From the sequence record LC788705.1: a stretch of DNA of 64,000 nucleotides; one strand, 5' to 3'. Below are positions 1-10,440 of this stretch, piece by piece; the stretch's first letter is position 1; each line of letters starts with the position of its first letter. This stretch comes from Escherichia coli phage NG_A1. Position numbers and translations under genes: made by a program. Below the pieces are notes generated by a model that searched no databases, was not told the DNA's origin, and saw only the letters and a list, made by a program, of their open reading frames with translations.

Positions 1-200
1 ATGAGAATGATTCTCATTTAAAAAGCGGAATGAGAATGATAATAATTCGCATTTAAGAATGGAAGTGAGAATTATTCAGGAAGTGAAACGATTCTCATTT
101 AAAAAGCAGAATGATTCTCATTTAGAAAGTGGAACGCAAATAATAGTGATTCGTATTTAAGAACGGAAGTGAGAAACACTATTATTTAAGTTATCCACAG
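1..200. repeat. Cluster of near-palindromic GAGAAT(G/C)ATTCTC units plus a ~55-bp imperfect tandem direct repeat (approx 26-85 and 140-200)
   Basis: Palindrome copies read at 3-15 and 108-120, half-sites at 32-40 and 89-97; two ~55-bp units align at ~80% identity. Confidence 0.7.
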
Positions 201-300
201 ACTTATTAACAGCACGATTTGACTTGACAGAATCCTAGCCATTTTGGGGTGTTATTAACAGACTTATCCACAGCTTATCCTACTGTATAAATATACAGTA
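181..300. repeat. Inverted-repeat arm A (~120 bp) carrying DnaA boxes
   Basis: Reverse complement of 4321-4440 aligns over ~120 bp with scattered mismatches; TTATCCACA at 191-199 and 264-272. Confidence 0.8.
191..272 (+). promoter_or_regulatory. Two consensus DnaA boxes (TTATCCACA) at 191-199 and 264-272
   Basis: Exact 9-mer matches to the E. coli DnaA box consensus TTATNCACA. Confidence 0.6.
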
Positions 301-483
301 TTCCTACGCAGTGAATAATTCTAATATAGCGTTAAAACGTCCTAGATCGCATTCTAACGCGTTTAATTTTGGTGGGGATACTAAAACACGGGCAAAATTG
401 GAGGAGGCTTGAAAATTAGTTAGCTCGCTAACGATCACACAAGGCGACACGTAACACCCTAATCATTAGCAGGCTAACCATCG

Positions 484-530
484 CGGGCGCGGTCAAATGA
501 GAATCATTCTCATTTGAGAATTGGGGGCAC
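484..530 (+). repeat. ~40-bp element CGGGCGCGGTCAAATGAGAATCATTCTCATTTGAG, copy 1
   Basis: Similar element recurs in direct orientation at 10506-10544; contains the GAGAATCATTCTC palindrome. Confidence 0.6.
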
Positions 531-666
531 TTCCCGATAGTTGCGCCCCGTGATTATTATAGTAGCGGGCAACCGTTACGCTTTGCCCACTCCCGCCACT
601 CATCTTGATGCCTAGACTTGCGACGGCGTACTAAAAACCGCTTGTACCAGTGATTAAACCATCGTT

Positions 667-870
667 TCATAAACCCTCCTCCGGTAGTCGATGCGTGATC
701 TTCTCCTCCTCCCCGTAGGAATCCACCAAATACTGATAATAACCATCGTGATCATAAATCACTTTATCATATTCGCCCCGCTCGACCGCTTGCCGATTCT
801 CCGGCGTATCTGGCACGTAAAAAACATCAACCATTGTACTGATTTTGGTTACAATAATTTTATTGCTCAT
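667..870 (-). CDS. Hypothetical pre-early protein (67 aa), last gene of the minus-strand operon
   Basis: ORF with GGAG Shine-Dalgarno (TAACGGAGCGTTATT-ATG). Confidence 0.55.
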   Translation of the reverse strand: MSNKIIVTKISTMVDVFYVPDTPENRQAVERGEYDKVIYDHDGYYQYLVDSYGEEEKITHRLPEEGL

Positions 871-885
871 AATAACGCTCCGTTA

Positions 886-993
886 TTAAAAATTACCATA
901 TATTCCCGGCCAAATTTTACTAGTAACATAAGTTACTATTCCTGCCGTAATTATGCTATAAACTACTAATAAGGTAAACATTAAACCAGACAT
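886..993 (-). CDS. Small hydrophobic peptide (35 aa, MSGLMFTLLVVYSIITAGIVTYVTSKIWPGIYGNF)
   Basis: Hand-translated; AGGAG RBS upstream; predicted single TM helix; below the ORF-track size cutoff. Confidence 0.4.
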   Translation of the reverse strand: MSGLMFTLLVVYSIITAGIVTYVTSKIWPGIYGNF

Positions 994-1001
994 AATAACT
1001 C

Positions 1002-1097
1002 CTAGTAAATATATTTTTGCCAATGGTGGCGAACGTTGTCGCCACCAGCGGAATCATTAGCTGCCTTAACATTACCAACGAAAATATATAATTTCAT
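1002..1097 (-). CDS. Small peptide (31 aa) containing an internal 8-bp-stem hairpin
   Basis: Hand-translated; GGGAG RBS upstream; short, speculative. Confidence 0.3.
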   Translation of the reverse strand: MKLYIFVGNVKAANDSAGGDNVRHHWQKYIY

Positions 1098-1115
1098 AAT
1101 AACTCCCGTTATTAA

Positions 1116-1274
1116 TTATTTGCGTAAATATACGCTTGCTAGTAGTCCGGCTAGAAAGCCCGCTGATACACCAAATGAAGCCACACCGGGAACACTAGCA
1201 CCATGAGCGTATAAAGCCCAGCAAATTACATAAGGCAACAACGGAAACATGCCAGCTATTAAAAACTTTTTCAT
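1116..1274 (-). CDS. Small hydrophobic membrane peptide (52 aa)
   Basis: Hand-translated; ATGA start/stop overlap with upstream gene; AAGGTGG RBS; two hydrophobic stretches. Confidence 0.45.
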   Translation of the reverse strand: MKKFLIAGMFPLLPYVICWALYAHGASVPGVASFGVSAGFLAGLLASVYLRK

Positions 1275-1615
1275 TGCGCCACCTTTCGAAATGCTGTTTC
1301 AATACTATCAGCCGTGGATTGAATATATGCGCCTTTCATTATCAGGCGCTCGGTGCATACCTTGCGGAAAATATTAATAAAATCCTCTTCATTTTCTGCA
1401 ATCAATGCTTCCCCCATGACCTGAATATCACAAGATGCAAAGGTCAAAAATTGAAACGCTAGTTCACGGGCAACGACCGCATTAATTTTATAATGCGCCT
1501 TGCCCTCATAAATATTAACCACGCCTTTATAAACTGGTGAAAGCTGATTTAAATAGCTTGCTAATAATGCCGGACGGCAATTAGCAACAAAACGATTGCC
1601 CTCATAAATTACCAT
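1271..1615 (-). CDS. Hypothetical pre-early protein (114 aa from ATG; track ORF begins at upstream TTG)
   Basis: ORF track 1271..1630; ATG at 1615 overlaps the stop of the upstream small ORF (ATGGTAA). Confidence 0.55.
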   Translation of the reverse strand: MVIYEGNRFVANCRPALLASYLNQLSPVYKGVVNIYEGKAHYKINAVVARELAFQFLTFASCDIQVMGEALIAENEEDFINIFRKVCTERLIMKGAYIQSTADSIETAFRKVAQ

Positions 1616-1734
1616 TGCGACATCCCCCAAATAGTTGCACCGATAAAGATTAGCTGGCTAACGATGATTAACATAAAACCAATTGAAGGCAGGACGCCCC
1701 AATATTGTAACGCCCTTTTAATTTGCTGAATCAT
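1609..1734 (-). CDS. Small hydrophobic peptide (41 aa)
   Basis: Hand-translated; ATGA overlap with stop of 1731..1943 and ATGGTAA overlap with next start. Confidence 0.4.
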   Translation of the reverse strand: MIQQIKRALQYWGVLPSIGFMLIIVSQLIFIGATIWGMSQW

Positions 1735-1943
1735 AATACCCCACGAAATGCAGCGTAAAAGGTGGCAAAATGTTTAACCGTTTCAGCGATCACGTTGCCG
1801 CGCTTGTCAAATTTCTTTTCAGTAACACGAAAGGCATTCTTATTACGTGCTACGTATTCGATTTTACAATCTTCACGCTCAAACGTGTTTACATCCACCA
1901 GCTTAAAGCCTTTCGAACGTGCAAGAGAAACGTTACGAATCAT
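1731..1943 (-). CDS. Hypothetical pre-early protein (70 aa)
   Basis: ORF track; translationally coupled to both neighbours. Confidence 0.5.
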   Translation of the reverse strand: MIRNVSLARSKGFKLVDVNTFEREDCKIEYVARNKNAFRVTEKKFDKRGNVIAETVKHFATFYAAFRGVL

Positions 1944-1945
1944 TT

Positions 1946-2095
1946 TTATTCTCCTTTACCAGTCATGCAGCCTAGCAGATAAGAAAATGCGGCAATTACC
2001 GCGCCAATAGTAACCGCGTGAACACCGAAAGCTATTGCAAACAAAGATAAAATAGCGCCCAAGATACCAGCTAAAATAGCTCGAAAAATAACCAT
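1946..2095 (-). CDS. Small two-helix hydrophobic membrane peptide (49 aa)
   Basis: Hand-translated MVIFRAILAGILGAILSLFAIAFGVHAVTIGAVIAAFSYLLGCMTGKGE; GGGGAG RBS. Confidence 0.45.
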   Translation of the reverse strand: MVIFRAILAGILGAILSLFAIAFGVHAVTIGAVIAAFSYLLGCMTGKGE

Positions 2096-2144
2096 TTGTA
2101 ATACTCCCCTAGTTAGTGGGGCGAAAGTAACGCCCCGTTATTAA

Positions 2145-2375
2145 TTACATTAAAACAATTTTTGCCGCTTGTTTTTTGGTACAGTGTTCCGCTTTCAGCG
2201 TGTCCAGCAAAAAGCCAGCCGTTTGCTGATCGATTTTATCGGCGTTGTATAGTTCTTGAATGGTGTTATAAGTTTTAGCAATGCCGAACTCCTGTACCAT
2301 TTCATGAATGATGACGCGATTAGATACCCAGCCTTGCGCGGTAAACAGATGACTAGCAGAAGAATACGCAACCAT
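2145..2375 (-). CDS. Hypothetical pre-early protein (77 aa from the RBS-supported ATG)
   Basis: ORF track 2145..2408; GGAGG RBS precedes internal ATG at 2375. Confidence 0.5.
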   Translation of the reverse strand: MVAYSSASHLFTAQGWVSNRVIIHEMVQEFGIAKTYNTIQELYNADKIDQQTAGFLLDTLKAEHCTKKQAAKIVLM

Positions 2376-2480
2376 TTTAAGCCTCCAAATTTTTGGGAAA
2401 ATTTTCAACCGTCCTTAAACGGTGTAAAGGCATTATAACAAAAAGGCCACCATAAAAGGCGACCTTTACAAAACTTTACA

Positions 2481-2975
2481 TTAGACTACTTGTAGGGATT
2501 CAATATTGAAACATCGTTTCAATTCGTCATGCAAAACAGCGTATTCCTCCCATCGGGTACTATCAGGAATATAAACAAGCTGTTTTAATCGGTTTGCATA
2601 TATTACCGCTTTGTTATCGACTATCTCGACGCCGCCATATTTAATAATTAATTTCATGACGGAATTAATAGGATCGCCGCCGTTTACATATGTGCCGGAT
2701 TTACTTAACTGATAATGATAAAGGCTTGCGTATACGTTTTCATTTTCATACCATTCGCCAGTATCCTCGTCTTCATAGCCATCGCTACCAAAACGAGAAG
2801 CATTATCAATAGCCATTTCATGAGCGAAAGCGTCCAGATCCGTACCAGCAGGAACAAAGTATTCCTCGGTATTCCCTTCTCCGCAATAGCCAGTATGGCA
2901 ATCGACTAAAATGATCATATCATGTTTAGCCGTGCTCACTTCCCCTAGCGAGAAGCCGTATTTTTCCTCAGCCAT
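2481..2975 (-). CDS. Hypothetical pre-early protein (164 aa), acidic, Cys/His motif CHTGYCGEG
   Basis: ORF track; no domain recognised. Confidence 0.55.
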   Translation of the reverse strand: MAEEKYGFSLGEVSTAKHDMIILVDCHTGYCGEGNTEEYFVPAGTDLDAFAHEMAIDNASRFGSDGYEDEDTGEWYENENVYASLYHYQLSKSGTYVNGGDPINSVMKLIIKYGGVEIVDNKAVIYANRLKQLVYIPDSTRWEEYAVLHDELKRCFNIESLQVV

Positions 2976-3040
2976 TAGTTAGCCTCCTATTAATTAACAA
3001 GGGAATAGTAAAGCGGGGTAACAATCCCCGCTTAATATTA

Positions 3041-4058
3041 TTACTCGCTTTCGGTGTTAGTGGTAAAAGTAGAAATATCGATACCTTTTACCATTTCATC
3101 AATCATTTCAGCGATGTTAAAACTTTGCACCATTTCCAGCATTGCCGCTTCCATAGCCGCCCCTGCTACCGCTTTCGCCTTTTGGTTATTTGGGGCGTAT
3201 TGGTCAACCGCTACACTCAGCAGGTTAGCAATCACTACTCGACCAATAGGCGTATCGATATAACCTTTGATCATGAATGGTGCTTTTTTAGCCGCTACTT
3301 TCGTAATTTGAGTTAATGCAATTTTACCCGCCTCCAGTTTTGCAGCATTTACAACAGCGGATTTATTGGCGGCAACAATGTTAGCAATCTTGGTCATGGT
3401 GTTTTTTCCTTTGTTTTCAGTAGTTTGAGTGTTAACGCTTTGAGTGTTAGAATTTACAGCATGGTTTTCTACGCTGTCAATAATCTGATCTTCATCTTTC
3501 CAGAAAGAAAAACCAGCGCTTTCTATATCCCCATCATAAATATATGGGTATAGCTCCCGTGGTAACAAAAAATTACCGTCGTCATCAAAAGCCATTATAC
3601 CAGTATATTGAGATCCGTCGTTATCCGGCTTATGCCATCCAGCTGGTAAATACTTCCAGATAACATCTAAAAATCCCTCAATACTAGAAAGTCCGTTTAT
3701 CAGATCAAGCCCAATAAGCTCAAAACCATTTATATTAAATGATTGACGGCCTGAATTGCTATGATACGCAACAATATTATTACCCTGCGCAATAATAAAA
3801 TCGGTATCCGGCCCCGCTCCCCTGCCTGTAAAGATATGGCAATCCCGATTATATATATAAAACTAGCGTTGCCCCTTGCTTATATAATGGTAGAAAACTA
3901 TCCATATCATAGGCGTCATAATCATCAAAAAAGTTTTGATGAATAGTTTCAGCCTTGTTAATAAAATGTTTAATGCTGGTTGACTTGCTACCGTCCAGCA
4001 GGTTGCGCAATGCACCTTTTAAAACGGTGGCATTATCAGGTTTATACAGCCTCATTTG
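3041..4058 (-). CDS. Hypothetical pre-early protein, apparently interrupted by a +1 frameshift near 3849-3865 (fused product ~340 aa)
   Basis: Track ORFs 3849..4199 and 3041..3595 are joined by an 89-codon stop-free, start-less stretch (3596-3862) in the frame of the downstream ORF; strong GAGGGAGG RBS before ATG at 4058. Confidence 0.4.
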
Positions 4059-4320
4059 TTCGGCCTCCCTCGTTAATCGGTGAGTGAATGATATAGATAT
4101 TTGTTCACTAGGGGCAAGAAAAAAGAAAATGTTTTTTATTCCTTGCCTAGCGCCTAGTTTTATGCTAACCGCGCAGCGGTACAGTAAAGAGCAAAACACG
4201 GTGAAGCCACCAGGGCGACTGGTGAAGGCTTTACTTTAATATTACCCCACCGCATTTAGCTCGTTAGAAAGCGTTTTAGGCCGCTTAAAATTAATTGCAG
4301 TCGTTAACACTACCTTTCTA

Positions 4321-4440
4321 CCCTGTATATTTATACAGTAGGATAACATGTGGATAAGTCTGTGGATAAGTCCTTATATCGCCGCCTATCGTGTCAAGTT
4401 AATTTACAAAATGTATAAGGCTGTGGATAACTTAAATGAT
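4321..4440. repeat. Inverted-repeat arm B (~120 bp) carrying DnaA boxes
   Basis: Reverse complement matches 181-300; TGTGGATAA at 4349-4357, 4361-4369 and 4422-4430. Confidence 0.8.
4349..4430 (-). promoter_or_regulatory. Three consensus DnaA boxes on the complementary strand (4349-4357, 4361-4369, 4422-4430)
   Basis: Exact reverse-complement matches to TTATCCACA. Confidence 0.6.
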
Positions 4441-4620
4441 AGTGGTTCTCACTAACTAATTTATGCAGTTATTGTATAACAAAATATAGTTAGTTGGCTA
4501 ATAGGATTTTAAAGTGATTATGAGTCTGCTAATTAAACCTGAAAAACTCATTAGGTAGTCTGCTAATGATTTTGATATAATATAATAGAGATTAAATTAA
4601 TAACATAAGGAAACAATTAG

Positions 4621-5139
4621 ATGCCTAAATATAAAGATATAGATTATGACCTTTTTAATAGTTACTTTTATTATGATGAAACAGCGTTATCATTTTTACG
4701 TTGGCGGGAGGATCACGCCGTCGCAGGTGGTTTAAATGGTAATTATTGGCAAGTTGAACTATTAGACATGGGACAATTCAAAGTACATAGAATTATCTTT
4801 TGTATAATGAATGGCGGTATAGATAGCGAGCTAATGATTGATCATATTGATCGTAACACACGTAACAATAACATCTGGAATCTTCGCGCGGTTGATAGTT
4901 CGCAGAATAATTATAATCGTACTCCTAGTGAGTATGAAAACTGTAAGCGTGCTAATGGTATCCCTAGAAACATTTACGTTAATAAAGTTCGCCCCCGTGA
5001 TAGTTTCGGGCGTGATTATTTAACTGCTCAAATTAAGAATCCTATTACTAACAAGCGTGTTAGTAAGTCTGGTTATGATTTACAAGAGTTATTATTATGG
5101 CTTGAAGCTAAAAAAGCTGAATTTGGAATTGTCAATTAA
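4621..5139 (+). CDS. HNH homing endonuclease (HNH_3-type)
   Basis: Motif IDHIDRNTRNNNIWNLR; AT-rich flanks; extended -10 TGATATAAT upstream. Confidence 0.7.
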   Translation: MPKYKDIDYDLFNSYFYYDETALSFLRWREDHAVAGGLNGNYWQVELLDMGQFKVHRIIFCIMNGGIDSELMIDHIDRNTRNNNIWNLRAVDSSQNNYNRTPSEYENCKRANGIPRNIYVNKVRPRDSFGRDYLTAQIKNPITNKRVSKSGYDLQELLLWLEAKKAEFGIVN

Positions 5140-5637
5140 TTAATTTTATAAAATAACTCGTTTAGTCTTGATTTTTAAAAGTCAATATCTTTTACAACTA
5201 TTTTTCAATTTTGCTTTTGTTAAATATTTGTTAAATCGAAAATAAGCCGCCTAAAACGCCCTAGAACGCGATGAAGTTTTTAGCCATGCCATTGCATTGC
5301 CTGCCCTCGTTTATCGCTGCCACGAGCTTTTTAGATTTTGTCAAGTAGGGCAAAGCAAATATAAATGAAAAATTACTTGCCTATCTGCTTTATTTTGTGG
5401 TATTCGCGCGCCCGTTTCTTTTAATTTTAGGCCGTCGCCGCACGGTGTCCGGTGAGTTTTACCTTTACGTTTCTTTACAAAAATAAGGTTGCGCCGTTTT
5501 TAGTATTTGCTATTATTTATCTCGTAGGACGGCAACGGACTACAACGGCGGGAAGTTTACCGCCGCGCTCTTTAAAAATTGGGTACATCTTAAAGCCTAT
5601 CGGCGGTAAACTTATTACATTATAAGGAATCGACGAT

Positions 5638-5841
5638 ATGAAACAAACGCTTTTGATCACTGGCAAGCCTATTAAGGCACTAGATAGCAAAACAAAAAAC
5701 TTGTTGACAGTAGCACAAAGATCAGTAAAATATAGATTCACGCAGTACAAGAAAGGTCGCCAGCAAGGTCTGGAAATGATCTGGCGAAATATTATGATTG
5801 ACCTAAAAGAAAATCATAAAAAATTGCAAAAAATTGTTTGA
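5638..5841 (+). CDS. Small basic protein (67 aa) flanked by a 24-bp inverted repeat
   Basis: ORF track; Lys/Arg-rich; inverted repeat at 5581-5604 and 5859-5882. Confidence 0.4.
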   Translation: MKQTLLITGKPIKALDSKTKNLLTVAQRSVKYRFTQYKKGRQQGLEMIWRNIMIDLKENHKKLQKIV

Positions 5842-6071
5842 CAACCTAGCCGATAGGTTTTAAGATGTACCCAGTTCGATAAGAGCGATAACTTGATAAA
5901 ATTTGACGGTCGGTGCTTACCATAATGCATCCCGCCCCCTAACGGGATATAGCGGCCTACGTGGAGTTCTTTAAAATTGATTATATTGGCGAGCGGATTG
6001 TTACTTATTACCTGCTGTTACTTTCTAGCAGGTAATGCGGAACAATCCCCAAATAACTAGGAGTTTATATT

Positions 6072-6323
6072 ATGCAAAACGTTATTACCGCGCCGAAAGT
6101 TGGTCAATCCGTCTTCATTCCTTTCGTTACTAAAACGGATGAATTAACCGGAAAGGCCGAACGTATTAAAGGTGCGGCGCTTATGCCGTTCGATACAATC
6201 GACGCGGTATACGCTGAAAATGAACGTAGTAACAACGGCAAGCCCGTTTTTAGCGTTCGCGTTAAATCCGGCGATGTTGTAAAGGTTGTTCAACGCAACG
6301 AAAAATGGGAAGCTGTATTGTAA
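6072..6323 (+). CDS. Hypothetical pre-early protein (83 aa)
   Basis: ORF with AGGAG RBS; followed by a stem-loop at 6337-6362. Confidence 0.55.
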   Translation: MQNVITAPKVGQSVFIPFVTKTDELTGKAERIKGAALMPFDTIDAVYAENERSNNGKPVFSVRVKSGDVVKVVQRNEKWEAVL

Positions 6324-6419
6324 ATTAGTGTTAACTTTATATCCCCTTATTTCAGGGGGATATAACGATTAACATTAAGTTAATCTAATCCCTTAAATTA
6401 AACTAATAGGAGTTACATC

Positions 6420-6827
6420 ATGACTAACGCTAAAACCGCAAAATTCGCATGGAATGAAGAAAACACTCAGAAAGCTGTTTCCATGTATCAACAGTTAATT
6501 AATGAAAACGGTTTAGATTTCGCAAATAGCGACGGCCTGAAAGAGATTGCAAAAGCAGTAGGCGCGGCCTCCCCCGTATCCGTTCGCTCAAAATTGACCA
6601 GTGCAAAAGCCTATCAAAAAAGCGATAAGCCGCGTAAAGTTGGCGGCGGTAGCTCTGTGCGTAAAGCTCACTATGTGCGCGTTATCGCTAAACATGCTAT
6701 TGATTCCGGCATTATCAAAGACGCCGATGATTTGGCAAGCCTTGAAAGTGCAAAACTTGAAACGCTGGACGCAGTAGCGCAATTGTTAGGCGTTGCCGAT
6801 GAAGTAAAACAGGCCGCAGGCGAATAA
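6420..6827 (+). CDS. A2: Putative pre-early DNA-binding protein, A2-like (135 aa)
   Basis: Size and position immediately upstream of the A1-like gene; basic C-terminal half; AGGAG RBS; name assigned from memory of T5. Confidence 0.45.
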   Translation: MTNAKTAKFAWNEENTQKAVSMYQQLINENGLDFANSDGLKEIAKAVGAASPVSVRSKLTSAKAYQKSDKPRKVGGGSSVRKAHYVRVIAKHAIDSGIIKDADDLASLESAKLETLDAVAQLLGVADEVKQAAGE

Positions 6828-6917
6828 TAGTTATATCTTGCCCCCTTTTAGTGAGGGGGCAATAATATAACTGTTTAGCGATAGTTATTTTCTTCCCTTA
6901 AATCAGGAGTTTTAAAA

Positions 6918-7115
6918 ATGGTTTTCTCCCCTACTGAATCTTTAATTCTAGGCTTATTTATTATGGCGGCCTCCCTATTATTCGCTTATTTTCAAAATGA
7001 TTTAGATTCGTATTATTTTAAACGTAAATCTAAATTAGCAAAACGTTTAGGTCTGCTTTGTTTTATCGCTGCCGTTGCTTGTGGTGTTAGTTCTAGCCTA
7101 GTGCCTTTAAATTAA
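6918..7115 (+). CDS. Small membrane protein (65 aa, two predicted TM helices)
   Basis: ORF with CAGGAG RBS; hydrophobic stretches LILGLFIMAASLLFAYF and LLCFIAAVACGVSSSLV. Confidence 0.5.
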   Translation: MVFSPTESLILGLFIMAASLLFAYFQNDLDSYYFKRKSKLAKRLGLLCFIAAVACGVSSSLVPLN

Positions 7116-7205
7116 TATTGCAAATTATAACGCCTATTGTTCGAGGCGTTATATTTGGCAATATTGCCGTTACTAACCTAATCCCTTTAATGGAGTTTTA
7201 TTACT

Positions 7206-8876
7206 ATGATTATTTCCGCAGAAAAACAAACCGTTATCCTGAAAATGGCCGCTGACTTTAACTTCTACGGTAAACGCCTGCGCGCCACTAAATTGGAAGT
7301 TTGTGACGATATTTCGAAAGCGGTATACGATACTACTAAACACTCCACCGCCATTTGTGATTGGTTGGAAGCAAATAAACCAGCGAAACCAAAAGCGGCA
7401 AAAGTAGCAAAAGCCATTAAAAACGATGAGCGCCCAGAAGCGGCGGGAATTGTTTCTAGTACGGTTGAGCAATGGGAAGTAAAACAGGGTAAACGCTTTA
7501 TTATTACGTCGATTCAAAATAATACTTTCCCGCATAAAAACTTTTTAGCCTCACTGGAGCAATTTGCTAAATATATCGGTGCTGATTTGCTTGTTTCTAA
7601 GTATATTTATAATAAAAACGGTTTTCAAAATGGGGAAGGTGCGGATGGAATCAAATATGATTCCGCGTTCGATAAATATATTTGCAGCAAAAACGTGTTT
7701 TTAAATAACCGCCGCTTTGCTTTCATGGCTGAAATTAATGTTTTGCCAACCGCAGATTATCCGCTTTCTGGATTCGCCGAGACTGCAACGGCTTTAAATA
7801 TTGAGGGGCTGGCAATTGGTCACGCTAAAATTACCGCTGAAAGCGTGCCAGCTTTAAAAGGTGAAGTAGTGCGCCGTATGTACTCAACCGGAACGGCAAC
7901 GCTCAAAAACTACATTCAGCAGAAAGCAGGACAAAAAGCGGAAGCACTGCATAACTTCGGTGCGCTTATTGTTGAGTTCGACGACGACGGGGAATTTTTT
8001 GTTCGCCAGCTTGAAACAATGGACGAAAGCGGGGTGTTTTATGATCTGAACGTTTGCGCTACTCCTGCCGGATGCTATGAAACAACGGGGCATGTTTTAG
8101 GCTTGCAATATGGCGATATCCACGCCGAGAAATTAGATGAGGAGTGCGCCGCCGCATCTTGGGGGCATGGTGATACTTATGGGCTTGTGGATATTCTTAA
8201 ACCAAAATATCAGTTTGTACATGACGTGCATGATTTTACATCGCGCAACCATCACAACCGCGCATCGGGTGTATTCCTAGCGAAACAGTATGCAGCCGGA
8301 CGTGATAAAGTTCTGGATGATCTTATCGATACGGGGCGCGTACTGGAATCAATGGAGCGCGATTTTAGTCAAACAATCATTGTTGAATCGAATCACGATT
8401 TGGCGCTATCCCGTTGGCTTGATGATCGTAATGCTAACATCAAAGACGATCCAGCAAACGCCGAGTTATATCACCGCCTGAATGCTGCAATTTACGCGGC
8501 AATCGGTGAACACGACGAAACGTTTAACGTGCTAGATTATGCGTTGCGCAAGGTTGCAGGTTGTGAATTTAACGCCATTTTCCTAACGACTGACCAATCT
8601 TTCAAGATTGCAGGTATTGAATGCGGCGTACACGGTCACAATGGCATTAACGGGAGCCGTGGCAATCCGAAACAGTTTAAGAAATTGGGCAAATTAAACA
8701 CGGGGCACACCCATACCGCCAGCATTTACGGCGGCGTTTATACCGCTGGCGTGTCTGGTAGTCTGGACATGGGTTACAACGTTGGCGCGTCAAGCTGGAC
8801 GCAAACGCATGTTATTACCTATGCAAACGGTCAGCGCACTTTGATCGACTTTAAAAACGGTAAATTCTTTGCGTAA
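7206..8876 (+). CDS. A1: Pre-early protein A1, metallophosphoesterase-like (556 aa)
   Basis: Phosphoesterase-like motifs GDIH, GHGDTYG, ESNHD, GVHGHNG; 556 aa matches T5 A1 size as I recall. Confidence 0.75.
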   Translation: MIISAEKQTVILKMAADFNFYGKRLRATKLEVCDDISKAVYDTTKHSTAICDWLEANKPAKPKAAKVAKAIKNDERPEAAGIVSSTVEQWEVKQGKRFIITSIQNNTFPHKNFLASLEQFAKYIGADLLVSKYIYNKNGFQNGEGADGIKYDSAFDKYICSKNVFLNNRRFAFMAEINVLPTADYPLSGFAETATALNIEGLAIGHAKITAESVPALKGEVVRRMYSTGTATLKNYIQQKAGQKAEALHNFGALIVEFDDDGEFFVRQLETMDESGVFYDLNVCATPAGCYETTGHVLGLQYGDIHAEKLDEECAAASWGHGDTYGLVDILKPKYQFVHDVHDFTSRNHHNRASGVFLAKQYAAGRDKVLDDLIDTGRVLESMERDFSQTIIVESNHDLALSRWLDDRNANIKDDPANAELYHRLNAAIYAAIGEHDETFNVLDYALRKVAGCEFNAIFLTTDQSFKIAGIECGVHGHNGINGSRGNPKQFKKLGKLNTGHTHTASIYGGVYTAGVSGSLDMGYNVGASSWTQTHVITYANGQRTLIDFKNGKFFA

Positions 8877-8931
8877 ATAAATTATTTCCCCTAGCGGCTT
8901 GAAATATAGCCGCTATTACAGGAGTCAAAAA

Positions 8932-9189
8932 ATGAAAGTTACATTACCCAAAACATTGGACGAAAAAGTATTCATTTCACCGGATGAAATGGAATCTGAT
9001 AAAGTTTACAGCTTCGGGCCTATCCTAGCCGCCAAAACTAATACGGATGGTATTATTTCCGTCGATTCCCGTGATAACGATATTGTCCCTTTTGATGATG
9101 ATGGCGCTTTTTATGAGTGGCTAAGCGATAATAATTTACCCGTAAACGGTGAATTAACGCCGTACCAGATGCAGATTATTATCAAATAA
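8932..9189 (+). CDS. Hypothetical pre-early protein (85 aa from the RBS-supported ATG)
   Basis: ORF track 8899..9189; AGGAG RBS precedes ATG at 8932. Confidence 0.5.
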   Translation: MKVTLPKTLDEKVFISPDEMESDKVYSFGPILAAKTNTDGIISVDSRDNDIVPFDDDGAFYEWLSDNNLPVNGELTPYQMQIIIK

Positions 9190-9227
9190 ATTAAATCCAT
9201 TATTAAACTAATTGGGGTTTTATAAAT

Positions 9228-9626
9228 ATGAAAAAGCAAAATATTCCATTCGATCGCGCTCAATCTTCTATTGTTCTGGTTTATTCTAATGGCGAACGTT
9301 ACCACGTCGAGGCGGGGCACGTTATTGATGAATTACTAGACTTTAATGACGCTTTGCAGGTTACTACCTTTGCCTATACGCAAGCCCGCGCAAGTAGCTA
9401 CATTAAGGCCGTAGGCGTTTATGTTGACACGGTGAAGCAAGAAACGATTATCATCGACGCAGTAAAATCCGGTCTAGCCTTTGCAGTTGTCGCGCCTTGC
9501 CCCGCTTGCCTCGATGATCAATTGATCAGCGCAAAGGTATATACCTGCGCGGGTATCCGTTCCCATGTATCAGGTGAGGATGTTAGTTTTATCGCTGATG
9601 CGTTGGCTTTTGGTCTGGCGTTCTAA
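9228..9626 (+). CDS. Hypothetical pre-early protein (132 aa)
   Basis: ORF track; followed by a stem-loop at 9640-9668. Confidence 0.5.
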   Translation: MKKQNIPFDRAQSSIVLVYSNGERYHVEAGHVIDELLDFNDALQVTTFAYTQARASSYIKAVGVYVDTVKQETIIIDAVKSGLAFAVVAPCPACLDDQLISAKVYTCAGIRSHVSGEDVSFIADALAFGLAF

Positions 9627-9705
9627 TAGTTAATTTATTATTACCCGCTATTTATAAGCGGGTAATGCTGAATAAACTAAATCCCTTAAATGGAGAACGT
9701 AACAA

Positions 9706-10440
9706 ATGAATAAAGCTATTATTAATTCTTTCCGTAATTTCCCGCATATTTCCCGCGTCATGATTTGGGATTTAGACGGCACTATCATTAATTCTTTCCA
9801 TCGCGTAGCGCCTTGCTTTGATAGCGAGGGCAATTTAGATTTAAATAAGTATAAAAATGAAGCCTGCAAACATCATTTAATAATGCAAGATTCCTTATTG
9901 CCATTGGTTGAATATATGCGCCAGTGCATGAATGACGCAAATACTTTAAACATTATTTGCACCGCTCGACTGATGAGCAAGTCGGACTATTATTATTTGC
10001 GTAAACAAGGGTTGCGCGGTCGTGGCGATAGCAATATCCGCGTGTTTTCTCGCGATACACTGCATAAATATTTTAAAGCTGATAAAGTTAGCGAGATATA
10101 CCACAGCAAAGACGCAGTATATAAATCTTATTACTTTGAATTATTTAAACAATTATATCCGAACGCTGATTTTACAATGATTGATGATCATAAAGGCGTG
10201 CTATCAGCGGCGGCATCATACGGATTTAAAACGCTGGATGCGCAAGCCGTTAATGATATTCTATCAATAGGTGTAACATTAATAGGTGAAACCTTTATTG
10301 ATGAATCGCTCGACGATGATAATGATTATCAATTCCTAGCTGACCGTTTAAAATTATGCTGGGAAGGTATGACCGAGGAAGAACGCGCAGAATATAGTTG
10401 CAGCCCGCAACAATATATTGAGAAATTAAAAGTTGCCTAA
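9706..10440 (+). CDS. dmp: HAD-superfamily phosphatase, T5 dmp-like 5'-deoxyribonucleotidase (244 aa)
   Basis: HAD motif I IWDLDGTII near the N-terminus; TGGAG RBS; position matches the T5 pre-early set. Confidence 0.65.
   Translation: MNKAIINSFRNFPHISRVMIWDLDGTIINSFHRVAPCFDSEGNLDLNKYKNEACKHHLIMQDSLLPLVEYMRQCMNDANTLNIICTARLMSKSDYYYLRKQGLRGRGDSNIRVFSRDTLHKYFKADKVSEIYHSKDAVYKSYYFELFKQLYPNADFTMIDDHKGVLSAAASYGFKTLDAQAVNDILSIGVTLIGETFIDESLDDDNDYQFLADRLKLCWEGMTEEERAEYSCSPQQYIEKLKVA

Follow-up and report, generated by a model that had tools for sequence, protein, structure and literature searches.

The DNA analysed here, a stretch of 64,000 nucleotides from Escherichia coli phage NG_A1 (sequence record LC788705.1; the whole stretch is called the window below), carries near its left end a pair of inverted-repeat arms, arm A at 168-300 (+) and arm B at 4321-4453 (-), which enclose a minus-strand operon of small genes and are homologous to a pair of repeats known from the left terminal repeat of phage T5. 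Each arm holds DnaA boxes and, at the end that faces the operon, a palindrome resembling a LexA (SOS) operator, and this combination recurs in T5-like phages of several host genera. Judging from these motifs, we give roughly even chances to the arms being landing pads for host DnaA and LexA on first-step-transfer DNA, where they would contribute to the transfer stop or to insulation of the operon. The question of how T5 halts once 8% of its genome has been transferred is decades old, and papers from 2023-2026 call the injection stop signal (iss) functionally untested. The comparison presented here narrows the target from a repeat region of 1.2 kb to a DnaA double box plus LexA operator of about 45 bp at fixed spacing, and points to two host proteins, both of which are genetically tractable.

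Identification of the inverted-repeat arms

An inverted repeat of about 120 bp, proposed earlier from the letters of the sequence alone, proved real on recomputation, with arms slightly longer than proposed (about 133 bp): 168-300 and the reverse complement of 4321-4453 are identical at 102 of 133 positions. A repeat search of the window returned the paired blocks 219-298/4323-4402 (80 nt, 76%) and 168-206/4415-4453 (39 nt, 92%). Global alignment of 161-305 with the reverse complement of 4316-4460 gave a score of 59, compared with -11.6 +/- 5.6 (maximum 6) for 500 shuffles; the inverted repeat is highly non-random.

Using megablast, 455 phage records were matched, nearly all from T5-like phages that infect Escherichia or Salmonella. 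Where a record starts with the left terminal repeat, positions 1-4453 of the window match about 5.6-9.9 kb on the opposite strand; the window matches these terminal repeats antiparallel and is therefore a T5-type terminal repeat read backwards. Homologues of A2, A1 and dmp follow at 6420-10440 in the expected order. Alignment to the T5 first-step-transfer region, which the sequence-only reading had put forward as a check, showed each arm to be 91% identical to its T5 counterpart over 143-144 nt. Arm A corresponds to IRD'-spacer-IRC' (T5 9325-9468), the inner part of the iss region, and is of the same length as and collinear with arm A of T5; arm B corresponds to IRC-spacer-IRD, annotated as inverted repeats C and D in AY587007 and situated between divergent pre-early promoters.

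The T5 record AY587007 lists inverted repeats C (6022-6060), D (6112-6152), D' (9332-9372) and C' (9424-9462) and palindrome D (9330-9349), with divergent pre-early promoters flanking C/D, terminators preceding D', and the 7.9% nick a short way further on. In AY543070, the arm A homologue falls within 9140-10149, a misc_feature named 'injection stop signal (iss)', and arm A lies 150-300 bp to the left of the 7.9% shear point and nick. The arms thus occupy the position of the T5 pair: they lie in the terminal repeat and flank the rightward pre-early operon, with arm A adjoining the iss repeats and arm B between the divergent promoters. Heusterspreute and colleagues reportedly published the first sequence of the T5 iss in 1987; the literature searched contained no mapping of it by deletion or mutation. 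The sequence-only reading had taken the whole 4-kb cassette as a possible iss locus; the assignment to the first-step-transfer region stood and the arm A homologue lies inside the annotated iss, but the cassette is the rightward pre-early operon and not the iss itself.

Davison has described a 131-bp pair, IRC-spacer-IRD / IRD'-spacer-IRC', with a constant 52-bp spacer in 25 T5-like phages and with eight DnaA or DnaA-like boxes paired 3 bp apart, and has proposed that membrane-bound DnaA holds the DNA, with the arm A homologue as prime iss candidate (bioRxiv 10.1101/866236). Since that preprint describes exactly these repeats, boxes and spacer, the inverted-repeat pair with its DnaA boxes and its link to the iss had been described and annotated before. 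In 1979 a minor first-step-transfer band of about 5.85 kb was reported, which agrees with the position of arm B and suggests that either arm can stall transfer.

DnaA boxes and LexA operator-like palindromes

The exact DnaA box TTATCCACA is found five times in the window (0.64 expected), and all five copies lie inside the arms, at 191 and 264 (+) in arm A and at 4349, 4361 and 4422 (-) in arm B; this motif count over 64 kb agrees with the two and three boxes tallied in the sequence-only reading. In arm A, boxes with one mismatch, TTATTAACA, at 203 and 252 each pair in tandem with an exact box across a 3-bp gap, and this arm therefore carries the double boxes TTATCCACA-gac-TTATTAACA (191-211, +) and TTATTAACA-gac-TTATCCACA (252-272, +). 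Arm B carries the double box TTATCCACA-gac-TTATCCACA (4349-4369, -) and an outer box (4422-4430, -), the second box of this outer pair being degenerate, likewise in T5. In vivo, chromatin immunoprecipitation sequencing has located E. coli DnaA almost exclusively at box pairs 2-3 bp apart, lone consensus boxes often being unbound (PMC11317965). The total of seven boxes (five consensus, two TTATTAACA) is the same as in T5, and the boxes are paired as in the T5 arms. A third, degenerate box of arm A, TTATCCTAC at 275-283, overlaps the LexA-like palindrome of that arm.

The palindromes occupy the operon-facing end of each arm. The one in arm A, TACTGTATAAATATACAGTA at 281-300, agrees with the textbook LexA consensus TACTG(TA)5CAGTA at 19 of 20 positions and equals 'palindrome D' of T5; the one in arm B (4321-4340, core CTGTATATTTATACAG at 4323-4338) agrees at 17 of 20 positions, with both half-sites intact. 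Four CTGT-N8-ACAG sites are present in the 64 kb, and only the two in the arms have a spacer of A+T alone, the other two, at 51.6-51.9 kb, having G or C within it. Both arms hence combine CTGT-N8-ACAG, an A+T-rich spacer and a close fit to the consensus, the sequence features of a LexA operator.

Full-text literature searches (LexA with T5, Tequintavirus or pre-early) returned no link between LexA and T5; papers of 1987, 2005 and 2015 may hold an earlier mention. Davison's preprint mentions neither LexA nor SOS nor promoters (bioRxiv 10.1101/866236). The predicted near-consensus LexA operator in each arm is what this analysis adds, and it apparently was not reported before.

Comparison of related loci

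For comparison, 57 loci were gathered via the A1 protein, and the 30 distinct loci that had both arms were used as the comparison set, consisting of close T5-like loci and two Pectobacterium phages (about 65% A1 identity). All 30 have their A-type arm towards the iss and their B-type arm towards A2, and the spacers of the two types are distinct. Common to both arm types are an outer AGTGAGAAMCACT element, the box pairs, TTGACA in the spacer and an inner TTATCCTACTGTATAAATATACAG. Among these relatives the arms are 75-98% conserved while the gene content between them varies, with arm-to-arm distances of 1576-4610 bp; Davison likewise found the coding region of about 3 kb between the arms poorly conserved (bioRxiv 10.1101/866236). 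CTG-N10-CAG is kept in 56 of the 60 arms (30/30 A-type, 26/30 B-type).

Two peculiarities of the palindrome were noted in this set. Its centre alternates between ATAAATAT and ATATTTAT (16 vs 8 A-type arms), a two-base change that equals a flipped palindrome and suggests a flip of the centre or conversion between arms, not independent point mutations. In Pectobacterium phage DU_PP_V (5822-5837 of locus L037), the arm B spacer holds a second CTGT-N8-ACAG (CTGTATGCCTATACAG), so that two LexA-like sites are present there.

Where the flanks no longer align, a DnaA-LexA module can be recognised, in which one or two boxes (usually tandem, with a 2-3 bp gap) are followed by CTGTAT-N4-ATACAG; the gap from the last DnaA box to CTGT is 8-11 nt in every module. 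Klebsiella phage K7_rec19 (A1 74% identical to that of the window), Serratia phage Slocum and Vibrio phage D51 (A1 34%) have the module on both sides of the operon. Proteus phage 1 (A1 42%) has the full module on the iss side and, on the A2 side, the palindrome with the nearest consensus box about 300 bp off, and Vibrio phage Cilsick (A1 34%) has the module on the iss side, with a degenerate palindrome across the operon. Providencia phage PR1 has it on the iss side only, which fits arm A as the essential copy.

A consensus DnaA box within 60 bp of CTGT-N8-ACAG was found in 13 cases from 10 lineages (the window, T5, two Pectobacterium phages, the Klebsiella, Serratia, Proteus and Providencia phages and two Vibrio phages), compared with an average of 0.042 and a maximum of 2 in 1000 shuffles. 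In an unbiased 8-mer survey around the modules, the only words common to all eight lineages tested were DnaA-box words, the next most shared being flanked DnaA-box words and the LexA half-sites TATACAGT and ACTGTATA. Both consensus sequences are common to Gammaproteobacteria, and the retention of exactly these words therefore points to constraint by host proteins.

Beyond these lineages, A1 was found in Rhizobium and Dinoroseobacter phages, where it stands in replication or structural modules without a first-step-transfer layout; because of this, these phages are uninformative as a host-switch test. Metagenomic A1 relatives, whose hosts are not identified, showed no module, and the record of Aeromonas phage AhSzq-1 does not start at the terminal repeat.

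Proposed function of the arms

From the identity of the repeats, their homology to T5 and their conserved motifs, we infer that the arms may be occupied by proteins and may affect DNA transfer. As the left genome end enters the cell, DnaA, as dimers or oligomers, and a dimer of LexA would assemble first on arm B and then on arm A. In line with Davison's DnaA-anchoring model, the arm A complex and the repeats beside it would help to hold the DNA at the 8% position; this complex would also separate the rightward operon from DNA that has not yet entered.

A more specific version, which we advance only tentatively, regards the arms as composite DnaA-LexA operators at the first-step-transfer boundary, the complex being part of the injection stop or of a DNA-damage-sensitive gate. 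It is meant to cover the sampled Demerecviridae from E. coli, Pectobacterium, Klebsiella, Serratia, Proteus, Providencia and Vibrio hosts. If true, a damage gate would tie the A1-driven degradation of host DNA to resumed transfer or to pre-early shut-off.

Several points weigh against such roles for DnaA and LexA. The BF23 paper states that functional studies are lacking, and the binding of DnaA and LexA is here a prediction. It is not obvious how proteins bound in the cytoplasm would stop DNA from moving inward, and Davison's model needs DnaA that is bound to the membrane. A promoter scan found that the LexA boxes overlap no promoter conserved among relatives, overlap with a promoter being a further feature of LexA operators, and in 4 of 30 B-type arms CAG is replaced by CAA. 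A T5-like phage is recorded on DH5alpha, a recA1 strain, so that RecA-dependent cleavage of LexA cannot be a requirement for infection; LexA cleavage as a required trigger of second-step transfer was rejected on the same ground. Finally, the T5 segment from hegG to 017 can be deleted, the phage remaining viable with small plaques (bioRxiv 10.64898/2026.04.02.716235). As IRC-spacer-IRD lies between hegG and 011, this deletion should remove arm B, and the pair is therefore presumably not essential. On the basis of PR1 and of T5 being viable without the arm B region, we favour the iss-side arm as the more important copy.

Alternative explanations

The same proteins could act on transcription. The arms would then be insulators, at which DnaA and LexA bound to both ends of the operon block RNA polymerase, with the stop carried by the neighbouring repeats; host RNA polymerase would not read out of the operon and pull second-step DNA in early, and the divergent pre-early units would be kept apart. 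We regard this as possible, though we would not expect it. In the T5 annotation no transcription unit includes the homologous arms: arm B is placed between promoters P3 and P4, and the terminators at 8903 and 9196 come before arm A. The probable operon promoter of the window (TTGCCC-18-TATCAT, 4088-4117, -), homologous to the T5 promoter T5P4 upstream of gene 011, where a promoter has been characterised experimentally, lies about 200 nt inward of arm B. The two arms mirror each other about the operon, and their LexA boxes invariably face it, an arrangement that a stop signal by itself would hardly account for. A precedent for joint action is E. coli uvrB, which is repressed by DnaA and LexA together (PMC6015884). 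Insulation would also suit the ability of box-bound DnaA to terminate transcription, depending on orientation, and the internalisation of phage T7 DNA by transcription. Set against this, Providencia phage PR1 has the rightward operon without arm B, and in T5 two predicted terminators already precede arm A.

The conserved motifs might instead be recognised by phage proteins, namely the DNA-binding protein A2 and/or the nuclease A1, which would release the stop, the likeness to host operators being secondary. Both proteins are required for second-step transfer; A2 retains 40-66% identity across the same lineages, including the putative recognition helix S-x-R-S-K-L, its predicted fold is helical and resembles a helix-turn-helix domain, and Davison proposes that A1 cleaves at palindromes in the region (bioRxiv 10.1101/866236). 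However, the motifs match the host consensus exactly (9/9 for TTATCCACA, and the full CTGTAT-N4-ATACAG core), which would demand two independent and unlikely coincidences, so that recognition by A2 is less economical than binding by the host proteins. DnaA and LexA motifs are moreover the only words kept across lineages, and a structure search with A2 gave nothing significant, whether LexA or another solved structure (best E-value 0.76). Classically, the stop occurs without phage protein synthesis. We therefore consider recognition of these motifs by A2 or A1 unlikely.

The A2 protein itself (6420-6827, +) was confidently modelled by AlphaFold as all-helical (predicted local distance difference test score 84), with a helix-turn-helix-like bundle at the N-terminus. 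From E. coli to Vibrio phages, residues R56, K58 and L59 do not vary; S51 is constant in the five lineages compared. By sequence, A2 matched no solved structure and no family in the local Pfam copy. A2 as a mimic of LexA was rejected, as a Foldseek search against PDB returned nothing significant and the LexA DNA-binding domain only at E-values of 4.5-6.2.

It seems quite improbable that the arms are homology anchors for the exchange of accessory pre-early genes between co-infecting T5-like phages. Arms that stay 75-98% conserved while their spacing (1576-4610 bp) and the enclosed genes vary would agree with it, as would the poor conservation of the coding region noted by Davison, but it leaves the inverted orientation, the exact host-operator motifs and the retention of these motifs in lineages whose arms have diverged all unexplained.

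We give very little credence to a replication origin or a DnaA-titrating sink, which the clustered consensus boxes might recall by analogy to oriC or datA: the T5 origins lie near mid-genome and the replication genes on second-step DNA (Davison, bioRxiv 10.1101/866236), no A+T-rich 13-mer unwinding element was seen beside the boxes on reading the sequence, and seven to eight boxes cannot titrate the cellular DnaA.

Inversion of the cassette, which the sequence-only reading had thought possible from the geometry of 133-bp inverted repeats about 4 kb apart, is the least credible, given that all 28 loci whose inner flanks could be recognised show one orientation (same flank, strand and arm type throughout), that A-type and B-type spacers stay distinct and in place in every genome, and that cassette scans found no invertase or integrase. 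Pfam and PHROGs returned no recombinase among the larger cassette open reading frames (ORFs), the HNH gene, A2 and an 83-aa ORF, peptides below 60 aa being partly scanned; in addition, flipping would not switch expression because the promoter lies inside the segment. A composite transposon or insertion-sequence cassette was rejected as well, as no transposase was found in the same scans and the arms stand at the same place in 30/30 distinct T5-like loci.

Further features of the arms and their surroundings

The outer element AGTGAGAAACACT (AGTG-N5-CACT) at 168-180 (+) has a mirror copy at 4441-4453 and is kept in both arms of the 30 T5-like loci; its 8-mers are common to the window and four other lineages, Proteus among them. 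TTGACA is present in the spacers of both arms (224-229, +; mirror copy 4392-4397) without a usable -10 hexamer downstream. The sole promoter-like match overlapping a LexA box, at 4304-4331 (+) in arm B, is absent from T5. The arms as promoters were rejected for these two reasons, the conserved TTGACA having no -10 partner and the match over the arm B LexA box being absent in T5.

A second, weaker mirror block lies inward of the arm after a gap of about 30 nt, at 332-385 (+), with its partner at 4235-4289 (overlapping T5 IRB'); the alignment of 332-385 with the reverse complement of 4235-4289 scored 24 against 9.1 +/- 1.6. This inward symmetry beyond the LexA boxes carries a CCTAAAACG...TTCTAACG block, of which a third copy (5243-5275) is T5 inverted repeat B (IRB). 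In the Klebsiella, Serratia, Proteus and Vibrio phages, the LexA box is followed by words that look similar by eye, CTCTAAAACG / CTAGAACG.

Outside arm A, positions 1-167 (+) are filled with direct repeats and palindromes (AATGATTCTCATTTAAAAAG units), which correspond to T5 direct repeats C, palindromes E-I and the DRE repeats of Davison and make up the rest of the iss region. A perfect palindrome, AAATGAGAAT(C/G)ATTCTCATTT, is found in these direct repeats, and one extra copy stands at 495-515 on the cassette side of arm A. A reading of the outer iss repeats as Fur boxes was rejected, the enrichment being weak (3/16 sites in 64 kb with at most 5 mismatches to GATAATGATAATCATTATC lie within the first 520 nt).

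The right pre-early operon (557-4055, -) comprises homologues of T5.011-T5.017. The dense minus-strand operon of about 11 genes that had been read from the sequence resolves into 12-13 minus-strand ORFs within these limits; the small hydrophobic peptides noted with it are four in number (35-52 aa; 886-1023, 1116-1274, 1609-1734 and 1946-2095), and four-base ATGA overlaps occur at 667-670, 1271-1274 and 1731-1734. The T5.011 homologue (DUF7566, 3041-4055, -) is frameshifted by a 4-nt insertion in a TATA run near 3856-3859, after which its frame stops at 68 aa and 267 codons remain open in another frame; its intact length in phage NBSal005 is 336 aa. Either this gene, which has been reported as toxic, is truly inactivated, or the frameshift stems from an error in the assembly. 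The T5.014 homologue (1731-1943, -) is 100% identical to T5.014 (70 aa) and is named 'endonuclease nicking abasic sites generated by host Ung' by PHROGs and RefSeq, while T5.015 is by locus tag the neighbouring protein of 114 aa, to which the ORF at 1271-1615 (-) is 92% identical; probably one of the T5.014/T5.015 annotations is on the wrong gene. Further ORFs of the operon, all on the minus strand, lie at 2481-2975, 2145-2378, 1946-2095, 1609-1734, 1116-1274, 1002-1097, 886-1023, 667-870 and 557-670.

Just outside arm B, at 4621-5139 (+), lies an HNH homing endonuclease gene (Pfam HNH_3), a homologue of hegG, which by megablast coverage is present only in some relatives, as Davison notes for T5. 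The region from this gene to the left pre-early operon holds an inverted repeat of 39 nt (85%; 5566-5604 / 5849-5887, 244 nt apart), probably equivalent to T5 inverted repeats A/A' in the strong-promoter region. Positions 1-6500 gave no Rfam match to a known non-coding RNA.

Comparison with known systems

The invertible G segment of Mu and C segment of P1 resemble the cassette in placing a few kilobases between inverted repeats, but the cassette differs from them in having no recombinase gene that could be found, no second orientation among relatives and no switching of coding sequences. The double boxes of the E. coli DnaA regulon (PMC11317965) share with the arms tandem 9-mers with a gap of 2-3 bp, one of which is sometimes imperfect; unlike them, the arms hold up to two pairs about 40 bp apart, and a degenerate third box that overlaps the LexA site. 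The uvrB control region (PMC6015884), in which both proteins act, resembles the arms in combining LexA operators and DnaA boxes on one short stretch. Its sites, however, overlap promoters and regulate one gene, whereas the arms overlap no conserved promoter and form a mirrored pair kilobases apart, binding to which is predicted.

The T5 iss (AY543070) is homologous to arm A together with positions 1-167 of the window, while arm B and the operon fall outside it. The closest counterpart is the repeat pair of T5 (Repeat Regions 2 and 3 of the left terminal repeat), from which the window differs by point differences, by other accessory genes between the arms and by the frameshift in its T5.011 homologue, and with which it shares position, neighbours (hegG, T5.011-T5.017 and the iss repeats), 91% identity, DnaA boxes paired 3 bp apart and the same degenerate second box in IRC.

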